A stretch of 63,309 nt of DNA, the filler included, from Stramenopiles sp. TOSAG23-3 (Eukaryota): NCBI GenBank assembly GCA_900128585.1. It is 13 parts of 13 records of this genome, joined end to end, with 100 filler letters (N's around TTAATTAATTAA, not from the genome) between each part and the next. Parts side by side here need not be neighbours in the genome. Positions count along the whole stretch, not along the records: positions 6,042 to 11,971 come from LT643413.1; 12 more parts are not named here. One strand, written 5' to 3'. The notes below the pieces were generated by a model that made no database searches, had not been told where the DNA came from, and saw only the letters and a list, made by a program, of their open reading frames with translations. Below, piece by piece: positions 7,423-41,941 of the stretch. The first letter of the stretch is position 1. Every line of letters starts with the position of its first letter. A program made the translations under genes and the position numbers.

Positions 7423-8154
7423 GGTGCAAAGAAAGAGTACGATCAACGCACTGGTAGATCTTTCTTGAACCGCGCTGGGATTCTTTCTCGCACGCTGAAA
7501 GGAACGTTTTTGATACGTACGCCGGAACTTTCGAACACCTGAAACTAGAAAACTTAAAGAACTGTCACCGGCTGGTCTTGGAGCTGCGTGGTACGAAGTC
7601 CGGTAAAGCGTTCGGTTATTGCGTAAACTTCACGGGCGCTTAAGAATTTTAGAGTATTAATACACACATTATTAAAAAAAGAAACCTTCAAAAAACAAGA
7701 AAATTGTGCCCGGTGGAAATGGGAGGGGGGTGGGGGGGGGGTGACCAACTTTGAGCAGATTCACACAGTAGGGACACAGTATTATATATTTAAACAATTG
7801 TCATCGACAAGTGCAACTACGAGACATCAAAAACTTCTAAAATATAACCTCTTTTTAAGTCGTCCTCTATCATTATAATAATAATAAAAAAAAGAGTAGT
7901 ATTTTATCTGTAATAACTGGCGGCTACCGCAGTTGTTGGGATTTTGTCGCAACACTACGCAACCAATTCAGTTTATCTGAAGTTTAATTAAGTACATGTT
8001 TCCGTAAAGTATTCTGGTCAATCCGAATAGGGTCTACAAAAAAGTTGTACTTGTAACGCGTCTAATAGGAAGTACAGATGTGCAGACTGTTAATAAGTCT
8101 TTTCTCTGATGAAAGATTGAAGAATGGATGGATGATGATGATGAAATGAGATGA

Positions 8155-8292
8155 ATTTTTTTTCTTTTTTTTTCTTCCTCTTTTCTTCTTCTTCTTCTCT
8201 TCTTCTTCTTCTTTCTTCTTTCTTCTCTTTCTTCTTCTTCTTTTCTTCTTCTTCTTCTTCTTCTTCTTTTCTTCTTCTTTTCTTCTCCTCTC
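8155..8292. repeat. Degenerate (TTC)n polypyrimidine tract
   Basis: Directly visible. Confidence 0.9.
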
Positions 8293-8553
8293 ACAGCCAG
8301 ATTGTTTTGGATTATTGGATGCTGGGGAAGGAGAGTTCCATGGCGAGCAGTCTCTTTAAAAATGGTGAAACTTCCCTTCTTTCTGTTTAAAATTGTACGT
8401 ATTCATGCATTATTGTTATAATAAGAAATTGTTTCCTATCTTATAGAAGAAACAGCGCGACCAACAGCCAATCGATTATATACTGAACAACTATAAGAAT
8501 CGTCTGCCCTACTGGAAAGTCGAGCGAGAGAGGGAGAGAGAGGGAGAGAGAGA

Positions 8554-10209
8554 ATGAGTGCTCGCAAGACAGTCGCCAACGCCGTCGGGGCTGCACTGAA
8601 TAAGAAGCAACGGAAGAGGCAGCTAATGAAAGAAGTTTGGGCGATCCGTAAATCGAACAAAAAACACCGCAAGGCCTCTGATAAAAAGGATCAAGCGGCT
8701 GATGCCCCGCAGCTAAATGGTGAGCCCAGCCGTGGCCAAATACGTCGCGCGAAGCTCAAAGAGGAATTTTTGAAACGAATCGAGAGGTCGCCGACAGTCC
8801 TGATAGATTTAGACTTTGAAGAGCAACTTTCAGACAAAGAAAAAAATAGTTTGGCGCAGCAAATTATGTATTGCTACGGAATGAATAAGAAAACAGATCG
8901 ACCGGTTCAAATGCACTTATCGTCCGTGCGCGGGGTCACGGAGACGTACCTAAAAAAGATTCCTGGTTTTCCAGAGTCTTGGGTTGGAGTGAAAGCCGAC
9001 GATAAACCGTATCTGACAACGTTCAAGGACAGGCGCGATTCGTTGGTTTACTTGACTGCAGATTCGCCAAATGTTATCGATAACTTAGACAATGACAAAA
9101 TTTACATTCTTGGGGGCATAGTAGACAGAAATCGTCTGAAAAATATTACCAAAGACAAGGCAGCTGAACAACACATCAAAACAGCCCGTTTCCCCCTGAA
9201 CAAATATTGTAAGATGGGCGTTGGGTCGAATGTCCTCACAATAAACCACTGCTTTGATATACTCTTGGCGCGCTTGGCTTCTGCAGACTGGCCCAGTGCA
9301 TTTTGCCGAGTTATTCCTACTCGGAAAGATTTGATGTTGCGAGATGAGTACAAAGATAAATACGCTTCGATGTTAGGCACGTTTGCCGCGCCCAAGGACT
9401 GCAAGCCTTCAAGAAGTGGGGAGGAAACGTCTGGCGCACGCCCAGAAGGGGGTGCTACTAAACTCACTGCGGCCGTTATTGGAGCCTCCAGCGGCATTGG
9501 GCTTGGGTTCGCAAAAGTACTGTACAAGCGCGGGTACGATGTGCTCATGGTAGGTAGGTCGGCAGCAAAGTTGGGGACGGCATCTGAGGAAGTACGTCGT
9601 GGATTGGAGACGGGTGGAAAAGTCTACACTTTTGTAGCAGATTGTGCTACTAAACGGGACTGTTACCTTTTAAGAGATTTTGTTAAAGCATCGTTTGGAA
9701 AAGGTAGAGGAAAACTTTCCTGCCTCGTCAATTCTGCCGGCACGTTTAAATGGGACAAAGATGTGCCTGCTGGGGAAGACCCAGCGGAGTATTTAAAAGC
9801 ATCGAATTACACAACAAAGCAAAATGTCTTGCAAATGCTGGTGCCGTTTCTCCTTCGCAAAAACTACAGCGATCTTCAAAATTCCGACGGCAAGACGTTC
9901 GATGATCTCCCGCGCGTAATATTGGTCGGTTCCCAAGCAGGGCAACCGAACTTTGTGGAAGAAATAGAAAAAAAAGAGGGGAAAGGCGCCGCAGATGGCG
10001 AGCTTGGGTACATCAATGCAATGTCGGCACTCCGTACATGGGCCATTAGGATGAAAGATTCTTTGGGGAGAAAAGGAATACACATTCAGTTGCTAGAACC
10101 TGGATTAATCGACACTGCCATGGCAAGAAAAGAATTCAGCCATTTTGGGATAGATTGGTCAAACATACAAAAGCCCGTAGATTTTGCAAAGAGTGCCATC
10201 GATTATTAA
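8554..10209 (+). CDS. TRM10: Trm10-family tRNA m1R9 methyltransferase (SPOUT) fused to a short-chain dehydrogenase/reductase domain
   Basis: Trm10 motifs SLAQQIMYCYG, LVYLTADS, YILGGIVDRNR, KTARFP and VLTINH. SDR motifs VIGASSGIG, LVNSAG, VILVGSQAG and LLEPGLIDTAM. One uninterrupted frame. Confidence 0.9.
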   Translation: MSARKTVANAVGAALNKKQRKRQLMKEVWAIRKSNKKHRKASDKKDQAADAPQLNGEPSRGQIRRAKLKEEFLKRIERSPTVLIDLDFEEQLSDKEKNSLAQQIMYCYGMNKKTDRPVQMHLSSVRGVTETYLKKIPGFPESWVGVKADDKPYLTTFKDRRDSLVYLTADSPNVIDNLDNDKIYILGGIVDRNRLKNITKDKAAEQHIKTARFPLNKYCKMGVGSNVLTINHCFDILLARLASADWPSAFCRVIPTRKDLMLRDEYKDKYASMLGTFAAPKDCKPSRSGEETSGARPEGGATKLTAAVIGASSGIGLGFAKVLYKRGYDVLMVGRSAAKLGTASEEVRRGLETGGKVYTFVADCATKRDCYLLRDFVKASFGKGRGKLSCLVNSAGTFKWDKDVPAGEDPAEYLKASNYTTKQNVLQMLVPFLLRKNYSDLQNSDGKTFDDLPRVILVGSQAGQPNFVEEIEKKEGKGAADGELGYINAMSALRTWAIRMKDSLGRKGIHIQLLEPGLIDTAMARKEFSHFGIDWSNIQKPVDFAKSAIDY

Positions 10210-10674
10210 TAAAAACAACCTATGTACTGTTTCTAATTCTACCGTACCAGGTATTATTACCAGTTTTCATACCCGTTCCGTACCTGGTACGCACAAGTAT
10301 CACACCCCCCGTACAGGCGTACAGGTACAGGTATTAATACCTTGTTTTCTATAGTCTCTCTCAACAATTGTTGTTGTATTTATATATACTCGTACATGTT
10401 TCTATATGATAGTACTACTAGTACAAATGTAGACTAAATGGGATGGATGATCCGATCCGATCCGTTTCACTTGAAACAATCCAAGGGTACCAATGCTGTG
10501 TTTATATTAAATATGACGCACTTCCTTTTAGTCAGGACTGCTTGTCTTGTGGATTGGTCGGTAGGCACCTGGTTCCTCTTTGCTATTTCATGTTGTTTGT
10601 AAAGAGTATTATTATACTGCTGGGAGGAGTGGAGTGATCGGTTAAATATAATTTTTAATTTCATTGTAATAATA

Positions 10675-10803
10675 NNNNNNNNNNNNNNNNNNNNNNNNNN
10701 NNNNNNNNNNNNNNNNNNNNNNNNNNNNNNNNNNNNNNNNNNNNNNNNNNNNNNNNNNNNNNNNNNNNNNNNNNNNNNNNNNNNNNNNNNNNNNNNNNNN
10801 NNN
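10675..10803. other. Internal scaffold gap (no stop linker)
   Basis: Plain N run inside contig 2. Confidence 0.95.
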
Positions 10804-11058
10804 TTTTTTTCATTGATCGATCCGGTCAGGTCGGTCAGGTCGGTGGTGAGATTTTTGTTGTTGTTACTTCTTCTTTCACTACTTACCAACTACAAGTAGT
10901 TTTTTATTATTATCATTAATATTTGATTTATTCTTGATAAACTGCGCGACATATATCACCTTAGAAAGCATTCTTTGGCGTCATTTGGAGAAGATTGTTT
11001 CCTCGTATCGGTTTGCATAACCCCAGTCAGTTAGAAAACTTCCTTTCCGTTGCTCCCC

Positions 11059-11971
11059 ATGAGTAGGAAGAGGACACCACGAGTTGCCCCAGTTGCACGG
11101 TCGTCCCAGTGTAATGAAAGCTTCGCATTTCAGTGCTCCCTTGGGTACGAGCCCAGGCCATTAAAGATGGTGAGTGCCTGGAACTTGAAAGGTATGCACA
11201 GCAACAACCCGGAGTGGGAAAACGATGAAAGCTTGCGGTGCTTTAATATAACCCCTGCAGAGTTAAAATATGGCCCCATCCAAATCGACCATAAATATAC
11301 GCTAAAGTTAAAGTTTCGGAACAGAGGAAATTTCACAGCCAGAGCACGGCTGCAACCGTTCAAGCCGGAAAAATTATGCACAGAAGAGGAAAACCTTATC
11401 TGGGCGTCAGGACACACCATTACTATTGCCCCAGGGTGCTGCAAGACGATTGGGATATCTGTATTAGGCCGTTCCTTGGGTCACCTTCATCATGTCCTAA
11501 AAGTTACAACGGAAAGAAAAATATACGAAATACCTATGTCTGCTGAGGTCATGGACCAGGACGAACACGCAGAAACAGTGCAGTGGAACAAGCTCCGGAA
11601 GAAAATGAAGGCGAGTGCAAAGCAGCAAGGTGGTGGAACGGGCAAGAAAATAAATGAAATAGAGCTTATAGCTAATGGGGACGAGGGAGTAGGCGATTAC
11701 TTGTACGACGGTGACAAGTACACGTCAGAGATCTCAAACGCATACCTCAATTCGAAATGGGATGAGTTTTCCAAACGAGTAATAATAGACCATCGAGAAA
11801 AGTGGGTACTGCGCCCTGACGTAAACATTGACAGAAAAACTTTGGAAGATAACTACAACAAAACTTTTAAAACAGCAAAGTCAAAATGGACATCATTCAA
11901 AGATAGGTTCAAAACTGGGGGTGCGGCAAAGTCTTTGTTTAAGCAAACAGGCCACCACACACCGAAAGAAG
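11059..11971 (+). CDS. ASH/PapD-like Ig-domain protein, probably ciliary; 3'-truncated
   Basis: ITPAELKYGPI..YTLKLKFRNRG..IAPG..LKVTTE..YEIPMSAEV fits the ASH-domain pattern. ATG at 11059. Confidence 0.55.
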
Positions 11972-19213: not shown

Positions 19214-22200
19214 TCAATCCATAAACTTATACACGTCCGTATTCAACTGGTCTAGCCGCTTCTTCAACGCGGTGGACAGAAAAATTCTTTCTATCGCTTT
19301 GAACAGCCGTTCTTCGGTTACCAGCGTTCGCCAAAATTTCTCTACCTTGTGGTGTTTCTGGAGCAACGGCATCACGACGTCCATTTCAGAGTCTACCAAA
19401 GCCGGGGCCAAGAGGCTCAAAATTGCGATGGCAGTACGAAACAAATAGGTGACCCCATCCAGGAGAAAATTGTCCCATACCCGCGATGCGATCTTAAGCG
19501 GCAGGTACTTTAAGAACACGGTCTGAATCCACGGGAACAAGTACATGTCGGAATTCACGTTTAAATTCTGGAAATGAACGTAAACGTTGTTCAACGAACT
19601 CTCCAGCGCGCTGTCAAACAAGCTCAGGTACTGATGAATCAGCGACGAATCGAGCAGGTAGAATACGAACAAGTGGTCCTTTACCATCAAGTTCACCAGG
19701 CACTGAAACGTAAGGTACTGGTCTGATATGTTCAGCAGCAGCATAGCAGCCATGTAGCTCATCCCCTGAACGTACCCCAAGTCGGGCCGGTGCATTGCGA
19801 ACGCCTCCAGGCACTCCCGCAGCGGCTTGCTCCACGGACCTTCGCCCCCGAACAGGTTTAGCCCAGGGAAAGTTCTGGCCAAATCAGCGTCAATGAGCGC
19901 CAAAGAGAGCGCCTCCTTCTTCGAGCCGTCCCCCTCCTCTACCGAACCATCCGCCAGCTTTTGGGAATGCAACTGCTTCGCGTGATTGAGCGTTATCCTG
20001 TACATTTTGGGGGTAACCTTCACAGCGTTCCCAATAATGCGCGGCCATGCAAACTCCCGCATTTGGAACGGTATGCCCGACCGGCATAGGTTTACCACCC
20101 ATTTTTCATTCCGTATGGAGTGCCACTGTGGAATGATCTGGGTTTCCCAGCGTTCGCGAAGGATACGGAGACGCTTGGTTTTGTTCTTTTCGTCTTTGGA
20201 GTCAATCACTTCTACGTCGGACAGCCGGGTCTTACGGACAATGTTAGACGCGTCGACCTTTTTCTTGCAAAGAACAAAAGTAGTGTTGAAGGCGCAAAAT
20301 ATTTGCATGTCGTCGCCTGGAACAATCGGAACCAACTTGGACTCGTCGTCCTTGTCGTTCTCATCGCCGATAGATCCTACCGACTTTGGAAAGAGAACGG
20401 GAGTGGGCGTGCCGCGCTGAATTTTGTGCCCGAGGCCCAGCGCACCCACAGTATTTGAGCCCCAGCTAAACACGCGCCCCTCTGAGGTCCCACATACGGT
20501 GTGAAAGGCCCCACAAGCAATAGTCTTCACTTTGTCGTGCTCCCCCAAGTCACGCTCCAAGTCAACGTACTGGGGCGAAGGCTCAAATATGGATGCCGTG
20601 CCCAACTGCCCACTCTCACCCCCGCCCCAGGCGTACACGCCGCCGTTTGCACACAGGGCTACTGTGTGCACGTGGCCGCAAGCGACGTCTACGACATCTT
20701 TCCCCTTCAAGGCCTTAATCGTGGCCGGGTACAGTTCATTCTTCATTTCCCCCGACCCGCACTGCCCCGTCTGGCCATTACCCCACATGAGCAGGCTCGT
20801 CCCTCGCTCCATCGAGACAGAGCCTGCGGTTTTTCTCCTCCCACCGAAGTAGAATTTATTGGTCGACTTTTTCTCCAGGCTTGGCGACGCAGAGGATTTC
20901 CCGGGAAGACCTTTCTTGCCCTGCTTATCCAGTTTCGGGGAGCCCCGCTCCCCCCGCCCCCCCTCATCTTCGCCTATTTGCACCACATTGCTACTGCCAA
21001 CGTTTTTCGAGAAAAATTGCGTGAAAATGTTCCCTTTCTTCGTTTTCACCCCTTCTATTGCAACGACCGCCGAAAAATCCCAGCCGCAGGCTATGTTCAG
21101 AATAGCGCCGACGTTCATCTCCACCAGGGTAGGCACCGTCTTTGACTCTTCGGTGCCCAGCCCTAAGCGACCATCGCTTCCATCGCCGCACGTATATACA
21201 AGGTTGTTTGCGGACAGAAACATGCTATGGTGACTCCCACACGCAAGTTGTGTTATGACATCTCCCAGAAGGTTCTCACATTTGCGAGGAACACTTTCAT
21301 CGTTTCTCGTTCCGTGCCCTAGGCATCCCTCTGACCCGTCACCCCAGGAGTACACCCGCCCATCGCCGGTGAGCGCGAGAATGTGGTGAGAGCCGCAAGA
21401 CACTTTTATGATGCGGGACGCATTTTTCGTCAAAGCGCGCTCCAGCGCCAATGTTCGAAAAATTCTCGGCGCCGGACCGCTCTCACTTTCGTTCGAGTTT
21501 TCAGTGTTTCCGCTCACAAATACATCCCCGTTCGCATCCAAATAATAACACGACGTGACTTGCCAAGCACACGCAACCTGGGTAACGTTCAGGCCGACGC
21601 TGTGGCAGCGCGGGCGCAGCGAGACAGGGGACTGACTTTGCACATCATCAAACACTTGGCCCCACACCCATAAATTATTCTCGTCCGCGAGCAACTCCAC
21701 GGCACCCTCGTTGTTTTCATTTTTGGAGTCGTCCGTGAGGTCACGAACCTGTTCCACATCGACGCTGGTGGCGTCGAGCCCTCCGCTCTCGCCAACATTG
21801 TCCCCGTCCCCTTCGCCTTGGCTCGGCCGTTTGGGGCTATGGCCAGCAGAGACCAGACTGGTCTTCTGCGGAATTAAATTGATATTGTCGGTTGTGTGAG
21901 AAAGCAAAAATTGAACCTTTTCTTTGTATTGAACAAACACCTTCCTCCCGTACTTTTCGATAAACGAGTGCTTTACCGCCGTGTAGGTAAGTTTTTTCCC
22001 GCCACTGTCGATCATACTGCGCAACTCCTCGAGCATTGGGTGTTCCTGGGCGATCTTATCGATTTGTCCACTATTTCGTTGCGGTGACGGGGGGGTTGCA
22101 TCGCTCTCGCCTAACGCCTCATTGTCCGTCTTTTCTACAAGCTTTGCGTCCGCGGGAACGGTGTCGACTTCGACCGGTTTCTGTCGTCTTTCCCGAAGCA

Positions 22201-22456
22201 CTTCCTTCACTTCCAGCAACGCCCCTTCGGATATTTTAGAAGATACCAGTTCTGTGGCACGTACCTTCTCCTGCTTGAGCTCACTCTCCAGAGCACTCAT
22301 CTCATTCTTCATGGTTATATTCGCCAACGTCAAAGCCGCTATTTTTTCGTGCAAGGCGTTTATTTCCGTATGGGTCGACCGCCCAGCCGTGGTGTGCACA
22401 GCGCCAGTGCCCTGCTGCGACTCCCGCTTTTTCTTTGACGACGAAAACTTAAACAT
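19214..22456 (-). CDS. RCC1-repeat plus Rab-GAP TBC domain protein with N-terminal coiled coil
   Basis: RCC1 repeats (CGSHHILAL..VYSWGDG..GCLGHG). TBC motifs GIP..R..AW, IDADLARTFP and YVQGMSY. Confidence 0.9.
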   Translation of the reverse strand: MFKFSSSKKKRESQQGTGAVHTTAGRSTHTEINALHEKIAALTLANITMKNEMSALESELKQEKVRATELVSSKISEGALLEVKEVLRERRQKPVEVDTVPADAKLVEKTDNEALGESDATPPSPQRNSGQIDKIAQEHPMLEELRSMIDSGGKKLTYTAVKHSFIEKYGRKVFVQYKEKVQFLLSHTTDNINLIPQKTSLVSAGHSPKRPSQGEGDGDNVGESGGLDATSVDVEQVRDLTDDSKNENNEGAVELLADENNLWVWGQVFDDVQSQSPVSLRPRCHSVGLNVTQVACAWQVTSCYYLDANGDVFVSGNTENSNESESGPAPRIFRTLALERALTKNASRIIKVSCGSHHILALTGDGRVYSWGDGSEGCLGHGTRNDESVPRKCENLLGDVITQLACGSHHSMFLSANNLVYTCGDGSDGRLGLGTEESKTVPTLVEMNVGAILNIACGWDFSAVVAIEGVKTKKGNIFTQFFSKNVGSSNVVQIGEDEGGRGERGSPKLDKQGKKGLPGKSSASPSLEKKSTNKFYFGGRRKTAGSVSMERGTSLLMWGNGQTGQCGSGEMKNELYPATIKALKGKDVVDVACGHVHTVALCANGGVYAWGGGESGQLGTASIFEPSPQYVDLERDLGEHDKVKTIACGAFHTVCGTSEGRVFSWGSNTVGALGLGHKIQRGTPTPVLFPKSVGSIGDENDKDDESKLVPIVPGDDMQIFCAFNTTFVLCKKKVDASNIVRKTRLSDVEVIDSKDEKNKTKRLRILRERWETQIIPQWHSIRNEKWVVNLCRSGIPFQMREFAWPRIIGNAVKVTPKMYRITLNHAKQLHSQKLADGSVEEGDGSKKEALSLALIDADLARTFPGLNLFGGEGPWSKPLRECLEAFAMHRPDLGYVQGMSYMAAMLLLNISDQYLTFQCLVNLMVKDHLFVFYLLDSSLIHQYLSLFDSALESSLNNVYVHFQNLNVNSDMYLFPWIQTVFLKYLPLKIASRVWDNFLLDGVTYLFRTAIAILSLLAPALVDSEMDVVMPLLQKHHKVEKFWRTLVTEERLFKAIERIFLSTALKKRLDQLNTDVYKFMD

Positions 22457-38746: not shown

Positions 38747-41700
38747 ATGGACAGGGCCAAGTATGTTGTCGTGGGGGCAATGAAGGAAAACCGTAGGAGT
38801 CTTCCCGCGTATTCGTTGGGTGTGTGCACATGTTTCATTGCCATAACTGTTGCGGCGATGATGCACAGTGTGCTTGAGCAGGCCCCTGCGATTTATTTAG
38901 CGAGTGCTGAGTTGGAGGAGGGCCAAGTGGACGTCCGCGTGAAGCCTGCCGACGGCCCCAGCCCCGTCCTGTTCAACTTTTCTCGGGCAGAAAAGCGCCT
39001 TGAAAAGTTCGAGGAGTTCAAGTTTGCCGTCCCCCGCTTTGCTATTATCGGTTCAATCAAAGCCGCGGGCTCCGCAAAAGCGACGCAAGTGCAGCTGTTC
39101 GCCGCCGGCCTGGAGGGCGAAAAAAAAGCGGGCATTGGCCGAGGGTGGGATACGAAGAAATTTCCCCCTCTGGGGTACGGGGAAGCTTACTTGCAAGACA
39201 AGGTAGCCAGTTTGTTGGGCCTAGGGGTCGGCGATACGTTTCAGGTAGGAATGGGTATGTTTCCCCTTTTTCGCTACTTTGACAGGAAGCCGACCCGAAA
39301 TACCACAGATTTTTTCACGCGCTACGGAGGAGATGGATTTTTCAGTGGTTGTCAGAATTCGGGCTGTAAATGCGAGAGTGGAAGCAGCGACAAGGAGTCG
39401 AGGTGCCTCCTGTGCGACGCTTCCGTTGACTCTTGCGGTTTTCGACCGGACTCCACTAAGATTAGTTTGACGATAAGAGGCCTAGTTCGCGATTGGGATG
39501 GAAAAGTCCGGAACGATGTCTCCAACGGGTTACTAGTTGACTACAGTCATTTTTTTCGGTCTGTTTGGAACAGCCAGCCCATGTACGTACGAATGAATAT
39601 GCTGCCAGAGTTGAAGAAGCTTTTTCCGAAGGAGACGTTTACCGACTCGACTGCCCATGTGGTCGAAGGCTCGGAGGCGTTCGGTAAGCAGTTTGCTTCG
39701 GAGATGATCGTTATGATACCCCCGAAGAAGCGGGGCCAAATTTTGATCCAGGATGACTACAACTTTATCCAGGCGGACATGGTCAACTTCACCTCGGCCA
39801 TCGTGAACACTCTTGGCGCGTTGGATGCCATCCAGTACGAAACCCCCGTGGTCCGGCAGCTGAGGCGCAACAGGTTTACCAGCATGTACTTGGCGCTGAT
39901 CCTGGACATTCTCGTGTTCATCCTCTCGGTGCTGTCGATCGTGCTCATCTACAGTTTGCTCATGATAAACGTGGAATCTCGAACCTTTGAAATTGCGATC
40001 AGGCGAATGCTCGGGAGCACTCGGCGGGATGTTATCGTCCTTCTGGGGGCCCAAGCATTGTCGTACTCCGTGCCGGCACTGGTGATAGGGATGCCGGTCG
40101 CGGCTGCGGGTACCACCAACTTCGTGAATCTGCTGAGCTCGCGGTTGGCCGGAATACCGCTTCAGGGTGGCCTTACGGCCGGGGGCGTCCTCTATGGGCT
40201 GCTCCTTGGCCTCCTCATCCCAATAGTCGCAAGCATAGGTCCGATCAAGACCGCCCTGGAGAAACGGCTCGTTGAGGCCTTGGACACCAAAAGGTCCGTT
40301 CCGGGGGTTAAATTTACCATTTCACGAAATATGGAGGGGAAAGTGTACCGGCCATTTCTGGTTGTCGGCTTTTGCTTGACTCTGTTCGGATTCATCGTGT
40401 ACTACTTCCTTCCCCTTTCGCTGCTGTCTTTCAACGTGGGGCTGTTGGGGAGAATTTTCTTTTTCATATTGTTGGGGCTCCTGTTCGGGCTTGCATTTCT
40501 GAGCCTAAACCTCGAGCAGGCAATGGAGCACGCCGTCATGTTCGTCTTCTTTCGCTGTCTCGTGAAGAAACACTTGCGCGTAACAACTTTGAAAAATCTG
40601 GTGGCGCATCGTGTTCGAAATTTAAAGACGTCGATGATGTACGCAATATCCCTTTCTTTCATCATCATGGTGAATGTGTTTAGTAATATACAGCTCCAGG
40701 CGTACCAATTCTATTTGCTTCAGTCTCGGGGCGGAAATATGGTGGTGTTTGGGACAAGGTTTGTGCCAGGAACCTTGGGAAAGTCGCTGACCTTTCAAGA
40801 CGCGCAGGCCTTTCAAACCATTATTAAGAACGACAGCTTCGTGAACTCGAGAATAGAAGGCGTCGCGTGGGCGTCGCAGCCTGTCCGTTCGGTTCGGGGC
40901 GATGCAGAAAATACGGTCGGGACCCAAGGGCGGATTTTTGCCCGAGGCGACGTCGGGGTGATGGCAGTTTCTCCGAACTACTTTGAAATAGCAACCCCCG
41001 ACTTTTTGAAGGTGAAGGATGACTGGGCGTGGTCGTCGAAGTTTCTATCGGGCCTATCGTTCGGGGAGCAGATGTACACCGCTCGGGGCACGCAGAGCGT
41101 GATTCTTCCGTCGGCGTACATAAAGGCTCTAAACATTGGAATGGGCAAAAACGATCCAGAGCCAAGCCCTGTTGAAGTTATGGTGAACTTTCCGGACGAG
41201 AGCGAGAATTCCGACGGTCTGTCGAACAAGAAAAGGTACAGGTTTCTTCCCAATCACATGTTTCACAACATTGCTGGCTTACGGTTTAGCGAGTACAGGG
41301 AGGGAAACTTGCAGGTTCTGGTGCCTCTACCGGTTCTGAAGAAGTTTCTGGGCGGGGTCATCCCGTCGATAGAGGACATGTTGTTTCAAAAGCTGGTGCT
41401 AAGGCTGAAACCTGGGCTGAGCGAGGACGAGGTTGACACGATTGCCAAAAGCCTCTCGGGTGCCGTAAAGGACAAAAGTGTGCAAGGGAGCGTGTTCAAT
41501 TACAACGATCGCCTTCAGCAAATTGAGTCCAGTGTTGAAACGATAGACATGGTGTTCCTCGGTATGACCACTGTAGGAATGACGCTTTGCTTCTTCTCAT
41601 TGCTTGCTTCGATGGTCAGCAATATTGCAGAGCAAACCAAAGACATCGCGATCCTTCGGGCCCTGGGCCTCCGGAAGAGCGAGATCATTTGCATTTCTTG

Positions 41701-41941
41701 CCTGGAAGCGTTCATACTGGTGATTGCTGCCAGTTTCCTGGGTGGTGCTGCCGGTTGGTTTGTCAGTTGGACCATCAGCCAGCAACGGCAGCTGATTACA
41801 GGGACCCCCGCGACATTTTACTTTCCGGTTGAGCTTACCTTCTTCATAATATTTCTAGCAGCATTTTTTGCTCTGTTGTCTGCTGGCATTCCCTCAAGAA
41901 TTTACGTACAGAAATATATCGCCGACTTGATGCGTATGTGA
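38747..41941 (+). CDS. FtsX/MacB-type (ABC3) permease, duplicated
   Basis: Two FtsX signatures (VESRTFEIAIRRMLGS and IAEQTKDIAILRALGL), multiple TM segments and large extracytoplasmic loops. Confidence 0.85.
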   Translation: MDRAKYVVVGAMKENRRSLPAYSLGVCTCFIAITVAAMMHSVLEQAPAIYLASAELEEGQVDVRVKPADGPSPVLFNFSRAEKRLEKFEEFKFAVPRFAIIGSIKAAGSAKATQVQLFAAGLEGEKKAGIGRGWDTKKFPPLGYGEAYLQDKVASLLGLGVGDTFQVGMGMFPLFRYFDRKPTRNTTDFFTRYGGDGFFSGCQNSGCKCESGSSDKESRCLLCDASVDSCGFRPDSTKISLTIRGLVRDWDGKVRNDVSNGLLVDYSHFFRSVWNSQPMYVRMNMLPELKKLFPKETFTDSTAHVVEGSEAFGKQFASEMIVMIPPKKRGQILIQDDYNFIQADMVNFTSAIVNTLGALDAIQYETPVVRQLRRNRFTSMYLALILDILVFILSVLSIVLIYSLLMINVESRTFEIAIRRMLGSTRRDVIVLLGAQALSYSVPALVIGMPVAAAGTTNFVNLLSSRLAGIPLQGGLTAGGVLYGLLLGLLIPIVASIGPIKTALEKRLVEALDTKRSVPGVKFTISRNMEGKVYRPFLVVGFCLTLFGFIVYYFLPLSLLSFNVGLLGRIFFFILLGLLFGLAFLSLNLEQAMEHAVMFVFFRCLVKKHLRVTTLKNLVAHRVRNLKTSMMYAISLSFIIMVNVFSNIQLQAYQFYLLQSRGGNMVVFGTRFVPGTLGKSLTFQDAQAFQTIIKNDSFVNSRIEGVAWASQPVRSVRGDAENTVGTQGRIFARGDVGVMAVSPNYFEIATPDFLKVKDDWAWSSKFLSGLSFGEQMYTARGTQSVILPSAYIKALNIGMGKNDPEPSPVEVMVNFPDESENSDGLSNKKRYRFLPNHMFHNIAGLRFSEYREGNLQVLVPLPVLKKFLGGVIPSIEDMLFQKLVLRLKPGLSEDEVDTIAKSLSGAVKDKSVQGSVFNYNDRLQQIESSVETIDMVFLGMTTVGMTLCFFSLLASMVSNIAEQTKDIAILRALGLRKSEIICISCLEAFILVIAASFLGGAAGWFVSWTISQQRQLITGTPATFYFPVELTFFIIFLAAFFALLSAGIPSRIYVQKYIADLMRM

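Follow-up and report, generated by a model that had tools for sequence, protein, structure and literature searches.

A conserved fusion of a Trm10-type tRNA methyltransferase with a YxxxM short-chain dehydrogenase/reductase in marine protists

Introduction

Trm10 tRNA methyltransferases are described as monomers built of an N-terminal domain, a SPOUT domain and a C-terminal domain (NTD-SPOUT-CTD) in the available part of the review PMC9508554. Animal TRMT10C departs from this scheme: according to the accessible portion of PMC10941002, it needs a short-chain dehydrogenase/reductase (SDR), SDR5C1, also called HSD17B10, as a scaffold, independently of dehydrogenase activity or of the cofactor site. 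There it figures as the sole Trm10 known to require a partner, and reviews regard the link with SDR5C1 as a puzzling peculiarity of animals only. According to the available text of PMC8437803, the SDR5C1 tetramer of the human complex is the docking site of a hydrophobic adapter helix that lies N-terminal to the methyltransferase domain. Here we analyse a gene of Stramenopiles sp. TOSAG23-3 (assembly GCA_900128585.1) that encodes a Trm10 methyltransferase and an SDR in one polypeptide; it lies in a stretch of DNA of 63,309 nucleotides, filler included, which as a whole is called the window below. An earlier note on this DNA, made from the sequence alone, had singled out the gene as a possibly independent parallel to the animal complex.

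Results

The gene and its two domains

The gene occupies positions 8554–10209 of the window on the plus strand. It is a single uninterrupted, intron-less open reading frame (ORF) of 551 aa plus stop, which closes with TAA and is directly followed by a second TAA. Pfam recognizes tRNA_m1G_MT (PF01746) at aa 90–258 (E = 7.5e–22, 78.4 bits versus a cut-off of 27.3), with a match that spans profile positions 2–195 of 195 and places the protein in the Trm10 family, and adh_short (PF00106) in two stretches, the better one at aa 305–434 (E = 2.7e–16, 60.1 bits versus a cut-off of 26.6). Such E-values, together with 551 open codons in DNA of 45% GC, lie far outside of what chance would give. The one-frame Trm10-SDR protein described in the earlier note is thus borne out, and the motifs it had named were all found in the translation at their places: GASSGIG (aa 310–316), GRS (334–336), NSAG (393–396), GSQAG (459–463) and YINAM (486–490), with the codon of Tyr486 starting at nt 10009 and that of Met490 at nt 10021. 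The N-terminus is complete, since the motif LSK(N/R)A(K/R)KR is the common start of homologues, and since in a second copy of the gene (locus L001, see below) the open frame extends just 19 codons 5' of the ATG before it meets an in-frame stop. The features of the gene are as follows.

8554–10209, plus strand: complete intron-less coding sequence in the order Trm10, linker, SDR (ORF, both Pfam domains, identical copy on locus L001)
8554–8784, plus strand: basic helical N-terminal region, aa 1–77, homologous to the tRNA-binding N-terminal part of Trm10
8785–9339, plus strand: Trm10 SPOUT methyltransferase domain, aa 78–262 (PF01746, match to the fungal Trm10 structure, AlphaFold2)
9112–9132, plus strand: GGIVDRN, aa 187–193, with predicted catalytic Asp191 and S-adenosylmethionine (SAM)-binding Asn193 (alignment to fungal Trm10)
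9367–9456, plus strand: core of the disordered linker, aa 272–301 (AlphaFold2, confidence below 50)
9460–10206, plus strand: classical-type SDR Rossmann domain of the YxxxM subfamily, aa 303–551 (PF00106, model, tree)
9481–9501, plus strand: GASSGIG dinucleotide-binding motif, aa 310–316 (invariant glycines)
9556–9558, plus strand: Arg335, which follows strand beta2, at the site by which a preference for NADP(H) is recognized in classical SDRs (invariant)
9730–9756, plus strand: NSAG followed by the family-specific F-x-W-D, aa 393–401 (invariant columns)
9805–9819, plus strand: Asn418 of the SDR tetrad and, one helical turn on, Lys422, a candidate relocated Lys
9928–9942, plus strand: GSQAG with Ser460 at the catalytic position (invariant columns)
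9943–10008, plus strand: family-specific insert between Ser460 and Tyr486, with the KEGKGA-D stretch and one additional short helix
10009–10023, plus strand: YINAM, with Tyr486 retained and Met490 at the canonical Lys site (translation, alignments)
10096–10161, plus strand: EPGLIDT plus the conserved region of the substrate loop, which contains Phe528 and Trp535, aa 515–536

The ATG is immediately preceded by a GA-rich run, and a long pyrimidine-rich (TTC/CTT)n microsatellite lies at 8150–8290, ∼270–400 bp before the start codon.

The fusion is real and conserved across organisms

The same gene, with 100% protein identity, is encoded on a second contig of 4315 bp (locus L001). This contig matches the window at 7831–10674 and 10804–11971 and bridges the 129-N gap between them (10675–10803) by 175 real bases. 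No Ns were found within the gene itself, although N gaps occur elsewhere in the window.

Homologues of the fused protein come from several sources. A word-indexed protein search returned both domains in 12 of 39 matches, the window's own protein among the 12. When 1.84 billion representatives were searched exhaustively, 4130 matched at E ≤ 0.001, of which 150 were listed; among these listed matches are at least nine full-length fused representatives (P0003, P0007, P0010, P0011, P0013, P0047, P0057, P0063 and P0065) as well as fragments, and Pfam verified both domains in nine of nine fused representatives checked. Full-length fused proteins number 16, with identities of 27–50%, and members of their clusters reside on contigs of up to 74.6 kb. 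A metagenome scan, whose patterns were derived from the Trm10 part alone, confirmed 264 relatives, and 80 loci were kept. An SDR is present at 12 of the 80, in every case on the same strand, 3' of Trm10 and with no stop between the domains; loci with the SDR only are undetectable by such patterns and so do not enter this count. The GC content of the 12 fused loci ranges from 0.26 to 0.47, hence several organisms carry the fusion. At L010 (219–888) and L011 (100–769) the Trm10 domain falls into two frames ∼85 nt apart, probably because of an intron or a frameshift, while L005 and L006, which are close to them, keep one frame throughout and have ∼30 additional aligned residues.

RNA records, which are short contigs of 164–282 nt from libraries that may include DNA, matched pieces of both halves at ≥99% in four libraries, each from a different study, with no joints. 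For positions 9330–9470, where the earlier note had looked to RNA to tell one gene from two, the outcome is divided: a contig from a polyA library at 9351–9614 runs from the linker into the SDR, but 9137–9337 is uncovered in all four metatranscriptome runs, so continuity from Trm10 to the linker was not seen on one RNA. It is hardly credible to us that an assembly error, or read-through of an intron or stop, joined two neighbouring genes. N gaps do occur in the window, and no single RNA contig from the four runs compared spans the whole gene; against this stand the absence of Ns from the gene, the identical copy on an independent contig, the polyA contig across the linker-SDR junction, the common order and missing interdomain stop at 12 of 12 loci of widely spread GC, and the fused homologues from several sources. 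The Trm10-SDR combination, for which the earlier note had proposed a search by domain architecture, was recovered by these sequence searches, and the unfused arrangement in relatives that it named as a threat to its reading was not seen at any of the 12 SDR-bearing loci. Its picture of a fusion particular to one protist has to be replaced by that of a conserved family of 16 full-length proteins and 12 metagenome loci.

The methyltransferase half

Residues 1–294 were searched against the sequences of solved structures. The best match is a fungal Trm10, chain 4jwh_A (E = 3.1e–42), which we take to be S. pombe Trm10, followed by TRMT10A (4fmw, E = 2.7e–30). The content of PMC3874184 agrees with this assignment of 4jwh. 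The chains of TRMT10C match more weakly (E = 9e–20 to 3e–19), and the identity of this half as a TRMT10C (∼1e–19 versus 3e–42 for fungal Trm10 and 3e–30 for TRMT10A) was rejected.

In the alignment the IVDRN of the window protein (aa 189–193) pairs with IVDKN of fungal Trm10, and QQ pairs with QQ. In S. pombe, by the available part of PMC3874184, D207 is the general base and touches SAM, N209 likewise contacts SAM, and Q118 contacts the purine. Their counterparts here, D191, N193 and Q103, do not vary among the 16 fused proteins. Given the similarity to fungal Trm10 and TRMT10A and these invariant Asp, Asn and Gln residues, the methyltransferase seems to be intact and to belong to the cytosolic type, which works alone.

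The match with fungal Trm10 begins at residue 15, K21 and R22 are invariant in 12 aligned sequences, and AlphaFold2 places helices at aa 17–48 and 60–77, the latter highly charged, ahead of a SPOUT domain whose predicted local distance difference test (pLDDT) values are mostly 85–94. The basic N-terminus therefore appears, from this alignment, to be a homologue of the Trm10 N-terminal region with no obvious presequence, as the earlier note had supposed in preferring a nuclear-type basic region. We saw no link to PRORP or to mitochondria; a targeting predictor was not run.

Other Trm10 genes were met along the way. Locus L057 (3509–4609) holds a canonical Trm10 that ends directly after the SPOUT domain and has no SDR; its contig has the same name prefix as that of L001, its GC content is 0.449 versus 0.450 for the window, and its best matches belong to a clade containing a diatom Trm10. 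This hints that the host may also retain a canonical Trm10 beside the fused one. Two proteins carry Trm10 behind long N-terminal extensions: P0084 (974 aa, Trm10 at 704–969) and P0014 (592 aa, Trm10 at 339–585). Evidently Trm10 has been joined to other regions too.

The linker

A full-length AlphaFold2 model was built on 16 fused homologues. Between two confident domains it has pLDDT below 50 at aa 272–301, which upholds the flexible linker of the earlier note, and the overall predicted template modelling score (pTM) of 0.49 means that no fixed arrangement of the domains is predicted. The length and composition of the linker differ between homologues, where it forms variable low-complexity alignment columns; between L002 and L003 its amino-acid identity is 38%, compared with 88% for Trm10 and 71% for the SDR. 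The SDR is thus predicted to sit on a disordered tether of ∼30–40 residues rather than to be rigidly docked.

The SDR half and its invariant methionine

Modelled by itself, the SDR half gives a confident, complete Rossmann SDR (pLDDT 90.4, pTM 0.89), and by the family threshold, the glycine motif and the NNAG-type motif it is a member of the classical SDRs. Its Foldseek neighbours are generic classical SDRs (TM score 0.66–0.74, 17–25% identity), including carbonyl reductase 5b1y, RasADH 6ihi, actinorhodin ketoreductase 4dc0 and YciK 3f1k; NADP(H) is part of the solved structure in about half of those listed. The sequence search of the PDB gave E = 4.1e–8 at best, the Pfam KR match of the window protein is weak (E = 0.041), and the closest stand-alone relative outside the family has E = 1.4e–6 and 29% identity. 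The latter comes from the word-indexed search, which for stand-alone relatives yielded ordinary SDRs only, bacterial ones included, and missed the two proteins P0151 and P0242 described below. In the ESM Atlas only generic SDR clusters were found.

Of the Asn-Ser-Tyr-Lys tetrad, Asn418, Ser460 and Tyr486 are present, while the Lys site of YxxxK is taken by Met490. Classical SDRs cannot do without the YxxxK Lys, and activity is normally abolished when it is lost. The earlier note had read from the one protein that the cofactor motifs, the Ser and the Tyr are kept and that Met replaces the Lys; this holds, and it holds for the whole family. In an 18-member alignment 21 columns are invariant: G310, G314, G316, R335, D363, G396, F398, W400, D401, L414, N418, G459, S460, A462, G463, F467, Y486, M490, P516, F528 and W535. 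K422 is kept in 17 of the 18 members, and E515, L518 and T521 are near-invariant. A wider count, aligned by HMM, was made on 69 distinct SDR-bearing strings, many of them close relatives or fragments and with the window protein counted repeatedly. There Tyr486 and Met490 are found in 67 of 67 sequences covering these columns, as is S460; G396, F398, W400 and D401 in 65 of 65; R335 in 60 of 60; and the glycines G310, G314 and G316 in all 59–60 that cover them. Position 422 is K in 64 and R in one of 65.

A further peculiarity is the spacing from Ser460 to Tyr486, which is 26 residues; 13 is usual in classical SDRs. Of 18 rows, 14 have residues in the GKGA-x-D columns of the insert (476–481), with G476, G478, A479 and D481 identical throughout; the four most divergent (group-B) proteins lack this stretch. 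AlphaFold2 puts a helix at 467–475.

For the ratio of nonsynonymous to synonymous substitution rates (dN/dS) only the pair L002/L003 could be used (dS ∼1), the remaining pairs being mostly saturated or near-identical; its values are 0.057 (Trm10), 0.177 (SDR) and 0.21 (linker). As the change of Lys to Met is invariant within a strongly constrained pocket, it is not a lesion in a decaying domain, and this pattern of conservation argues against the SDR being a decayed relic. In classical SDRs an Arg after strand beta2 marks preference for NADP(H). From this rule and the cofactors of the structural neighbours, we predict an SDR of NADP(H) type. A two-copy run for self-association of the SDR scored 0.00, but the alignment was not used in it, so that it gives no verdict either way. 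Neither an SDR with YxxxM nor a Trm10-SDR fusion was found described in the full-text literature, with subscription journals and domain databases outside the search; the YxxxM SDR subfamily is apparently undescribed.

Other architectures and evolutionary history

The same type of SDR was also found apart from Trm10. P0151, a 443-aa model, has a Nudix domain (aa 6–118, Pfam NUDIX E = 9.3e–13) and, behind it, an SDR that shows F-x-W-D, YxxxM and the KEG-GA insert; P0151 stands as a single model of one source, and two genes may have been merged in it. P0242 is a stand-alone SDR of 297 aa from a two-member cluster that belongs to the same subfamily (LYIECM, FAWDKD) and has an odd insert of 21 residues inside the KEG-GA region, which looks like a retained intron. 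Its locus was not found in the metagenome scan, and an upstream Trm10 exon is thus possible. NCBIfam assigned no Nudix subtype, and its matches to both proteins were limited to generic SDR models below threshold. With P0242 standing alone and P0151 carrying it behind Nudix, the SDR is an autonomous module, and so it is not purely a scaffold of Trm10. In the opposite sense P0043 (357 aa) ends in a low-complexity tail with no SDR and groups with the main fused clade at 97 by the Shimodaira–Hasegawa-like approximate likelihood ratio test (SH-aLRT).

In the SDR tree, with the 15 best generic SDR matches as outgroup, the 18 members form one clade (100/100) whose interior is unresolved. In the Trm10 tree (164 rows) the fused proteins appear in two places. 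Eleven of them plus P0043 form a clade that adjoins clades including oomycete Trm10 (SH-aLRT 84), and P0013 as well as four divergent fused proteins (99) are placed in other parts of the tree, separated by weak branches. An SH-aLRT of 84 is moderate and insufficient to name the host group from its adjacency to oomycetes. The approximately unbiased (AU) test was run on 69 of the 164 rows, comprising the 16 fused proteins and 53 of the other 148. The hypothesis that these 16 form one clade was not rejected (p-AU = 0.588), and the constrained tree gained 6.08 log-likelihood units. Taken with the derived features that the SDRs have in common, this makes one old fusion the simplest reading, and the Trm10-SDR coupling is probably single and old.

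Other genes of the window

The window is gene-dense, with long intron-less ORFs for importin-11-like, DBF zinc-finger, PIP5K, sulfatase and ankyrin-kinase proteins. An ORF of 1080 aa at 19217–22456 (minus strand) combines RCC1 repeats with a RabGAP-TBC domain. Another, of 1064 aa at 38747–41938 (plus strand), has FtsX-like permease C-terminal domains (E = 7.7e–26); this domain is mostly bacterial, while the window around it is otherwise eukaryotic nuclear.

Discussion

The fused protein shares with TRMT10C-SDR5C1 the physical coupling of a Trm10-family methyltransferase to an SDR of classical fold, yet it differs from the animal pair in most other respects. Here the two are one polypeptide and there they are two; the Trm10 half resembles cytosolic Trm10 more closely than TRMT10C; and the SDR lies C-terminally on a disordered tether, whereas the animal anchor is a helix N-terminal of the methyltransferase. 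SDR5C1 is an intact tetrameric enzyme with NADH bound in the structure, according to the available text of PMC8437803, whereas our protein has YxxxM in place of an intact YxxxK and an Arg335 that, by the general rule, points to NADP(H) rather than NAD(H). A special kinship of the SDR to HSD17B10 was also considered and rejected, there being no special likeness by sequence or structure: HSD17B10 is absent from the 60 best of 94 PDB sequence matches and from Foldseek ranks 1–50, a direct pairwise comparison not being part of these searches. With a relative of neither TRMT10C nor HSD17B10 in hand, the likeness to the animal subcomplex is one of analogy, and the coupling, judged from sequence comparison, is independent of the animal pair, analogous rather than homologous to it. 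The independent origin that the earlier note had proposed holds in this sense, and its parallel with the animal complex survives for the coupling of Trm10 to an SDR but not for the geometry.

Compared with Trm10 and TRMT10A, the fused protein has the same basic N-terminal region followed by SPOUT and keeps the catalytic Asp, the SAM Asn and the purine Gln; it differs by the ∼250-aa SDR at its C-terminus, of which the reviews, in the available part of PMC9508554, describe no case. Compared with classical SDRs, it has their Rossmann fold, glycine motif, NSAG, Asn-Ser-Tyr and PG motif, and departs from them in the invariant Met for Lys, in ∼13 extra residues from Ser to Tyr, in F-x-W-D and in the Phe and Trp of the substrate loop. 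Ketoreductase domains of polyketide and fatty-acid synthases are active with YxxxN, the Lys being supplied from another helix, and so they share the loss of the YxxxK Lys and offer a precedent for a relocated one. Their Lys, however, occupies the classical Asn site, while here Asn418 is kept and the candidate Lys422 comes four residues on.

The reading towards which we lean, tentatively and with somewhat less than even confidence, is that of an active cytosolic-type Trm10 tethered to an NADP(H)-binding SDR that serves as a cofactor- or ligand-dependent accessory module and not as a classical dehydrogenase. The Trm10 module would make 1-methylguanosine at position 9 (m1G9), or a methylated purine there (m1R9), on tRNA by an Asp-base, SAM-dependent mechanism. 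The SDR would have NADP(H) as a ligand, and the pocket formed by F398, W400, D401, F467, F528 and W535 may hold a second one. Through the tether and a probable self-association of SDR type, it may modulate or assemble the methyltransferase, in a role that would be accessory and non-catalytic, and its mode of action would differ from that of the animal pair in using a tether in cis and no docking of an adapter helix. A Met in every member at a Lys that is essential in classical SDRs implies a non-classical chemistry. Several points weigh against this reading. The putative NADP preference is based on a general rule and on the cofactors of structural neighbours. Invariant Asn418, Ser460 and Tyr486 with near-invariant Lys422 are the pattern of an active enzyme, so that catalysis stays in play; the stand-alone P0242 suggests that the SDR has a job of its own; and P0043, the closest relative of the main fused clade, implies that Trm10 of this lineage can manage without the SDR, if that model is complete. 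SDR domains, moreover, are frequent fusion partners, and the resemblance to the animal pair could therefore be a coincidence.

Some of the same observations would suit a true second enzyme, namely an NADPH-dependent reductase with a non-canonical active site in which Lys422 or another basic residue replaces the Lys, the protein being bifunctional and its substrate tRNA or a nucleotide-like small molecule. MnmC is a methyltransferase-oxidoreductase fusion in tRNA modification. We regard such a reductase as possible, if on balance doubtful, and only a little less likely than the accessory module. The conservation of Asn418, Ser460 and Tyr486 (18 of 18), of a basic residue at 422 (64 K and one R of 65) and of the entire pocket and substrate loop, the purifying selection on the SDR (dN/dS 0.18), the confident Rossmann model with NADPH-bound ketoreductases and carbonyl reductases among its neighbours, and the YxxxN ketoreductases as a precedent all speak for it; the occurrence of the SDR alone or after Nudix would fit an autonomous activity on a nucleotide-like substrate, but P0151 may be a merged gene model. 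It is also weakened by the failure to find a YxxxM SDR in the literature searched, the loss of the YxxxK Lys normally being fatal to activity, and by the place of Lys422, one turn past Asn418 and not at the site used by the complex ketoreductases, from where its reach to Tyr486 is conjectural. Nor are we aware of a tRNA modification at position 9, or close to it, for which a carbonyl, alcohol or imine would have to be reduced, and no redox step is known there. It is, by comparison, quite improbable that Trm10 here structurally depends on the SDR as TRMT10C does on SDR5C1/HSD17B10, with a methyltransferase unstable or inactive without it and an SDR pocket that is irrelevant. Such a role could be argued from the loss of the catalytic Lys, from the Trm10-SDR link being kept over deep divergence and from the example of TRMT10C, which depends on SDR5C1 regardless of dehydrogenase activity or cofactor site (available part of PMC10941002). 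But the Trm10 half appears to be of the self-sufficient type, the SDR is unlike HSD17B10 and seemingly of NADP type, the linker is disordered with no confident interdomain arrangement, and the anchor in the animal complex is of another topology (PMC8437803, in its available part). Moreover, the conservation of the pocket is too high for a mere platform, and the SDR exists without Trm10 (P0242, P0151), as does the close Trm10 relative P0043 without the SDR.

A bolder way to join these observations, which we consider rather unlikely as a whole, takes the YxxxM SDR as a nucleotide- or RNA-directed module acting on the tRNAs of Trm10. One version would make it an enzyme that depends on NADPH and has a novel arrangement of the active site; in another it would be a reader, gated by NADP(H), whose aromatic pocket takes up a base. 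The pairing of Trm10 with an SDR would then have arisen twice for functional, non-neutral reasons, in trans in animals and in cis in protists, and P0242 would be a trans-acting partner of the Trm10 of its host.

The fusion provides a second, independent and evolutionarily stable coupling of Trm10 with an SDR, in marine protists, and so a natural comparison to the animal case. If the SDR affects methylation, the animal pairing would be less likely to be a frozen accident. The subfamily with its invariant Tyr-x3-Met would either extend the active-site chemistry of SDRs or add to them a class of cofactor-binding pseudo-enzymes.

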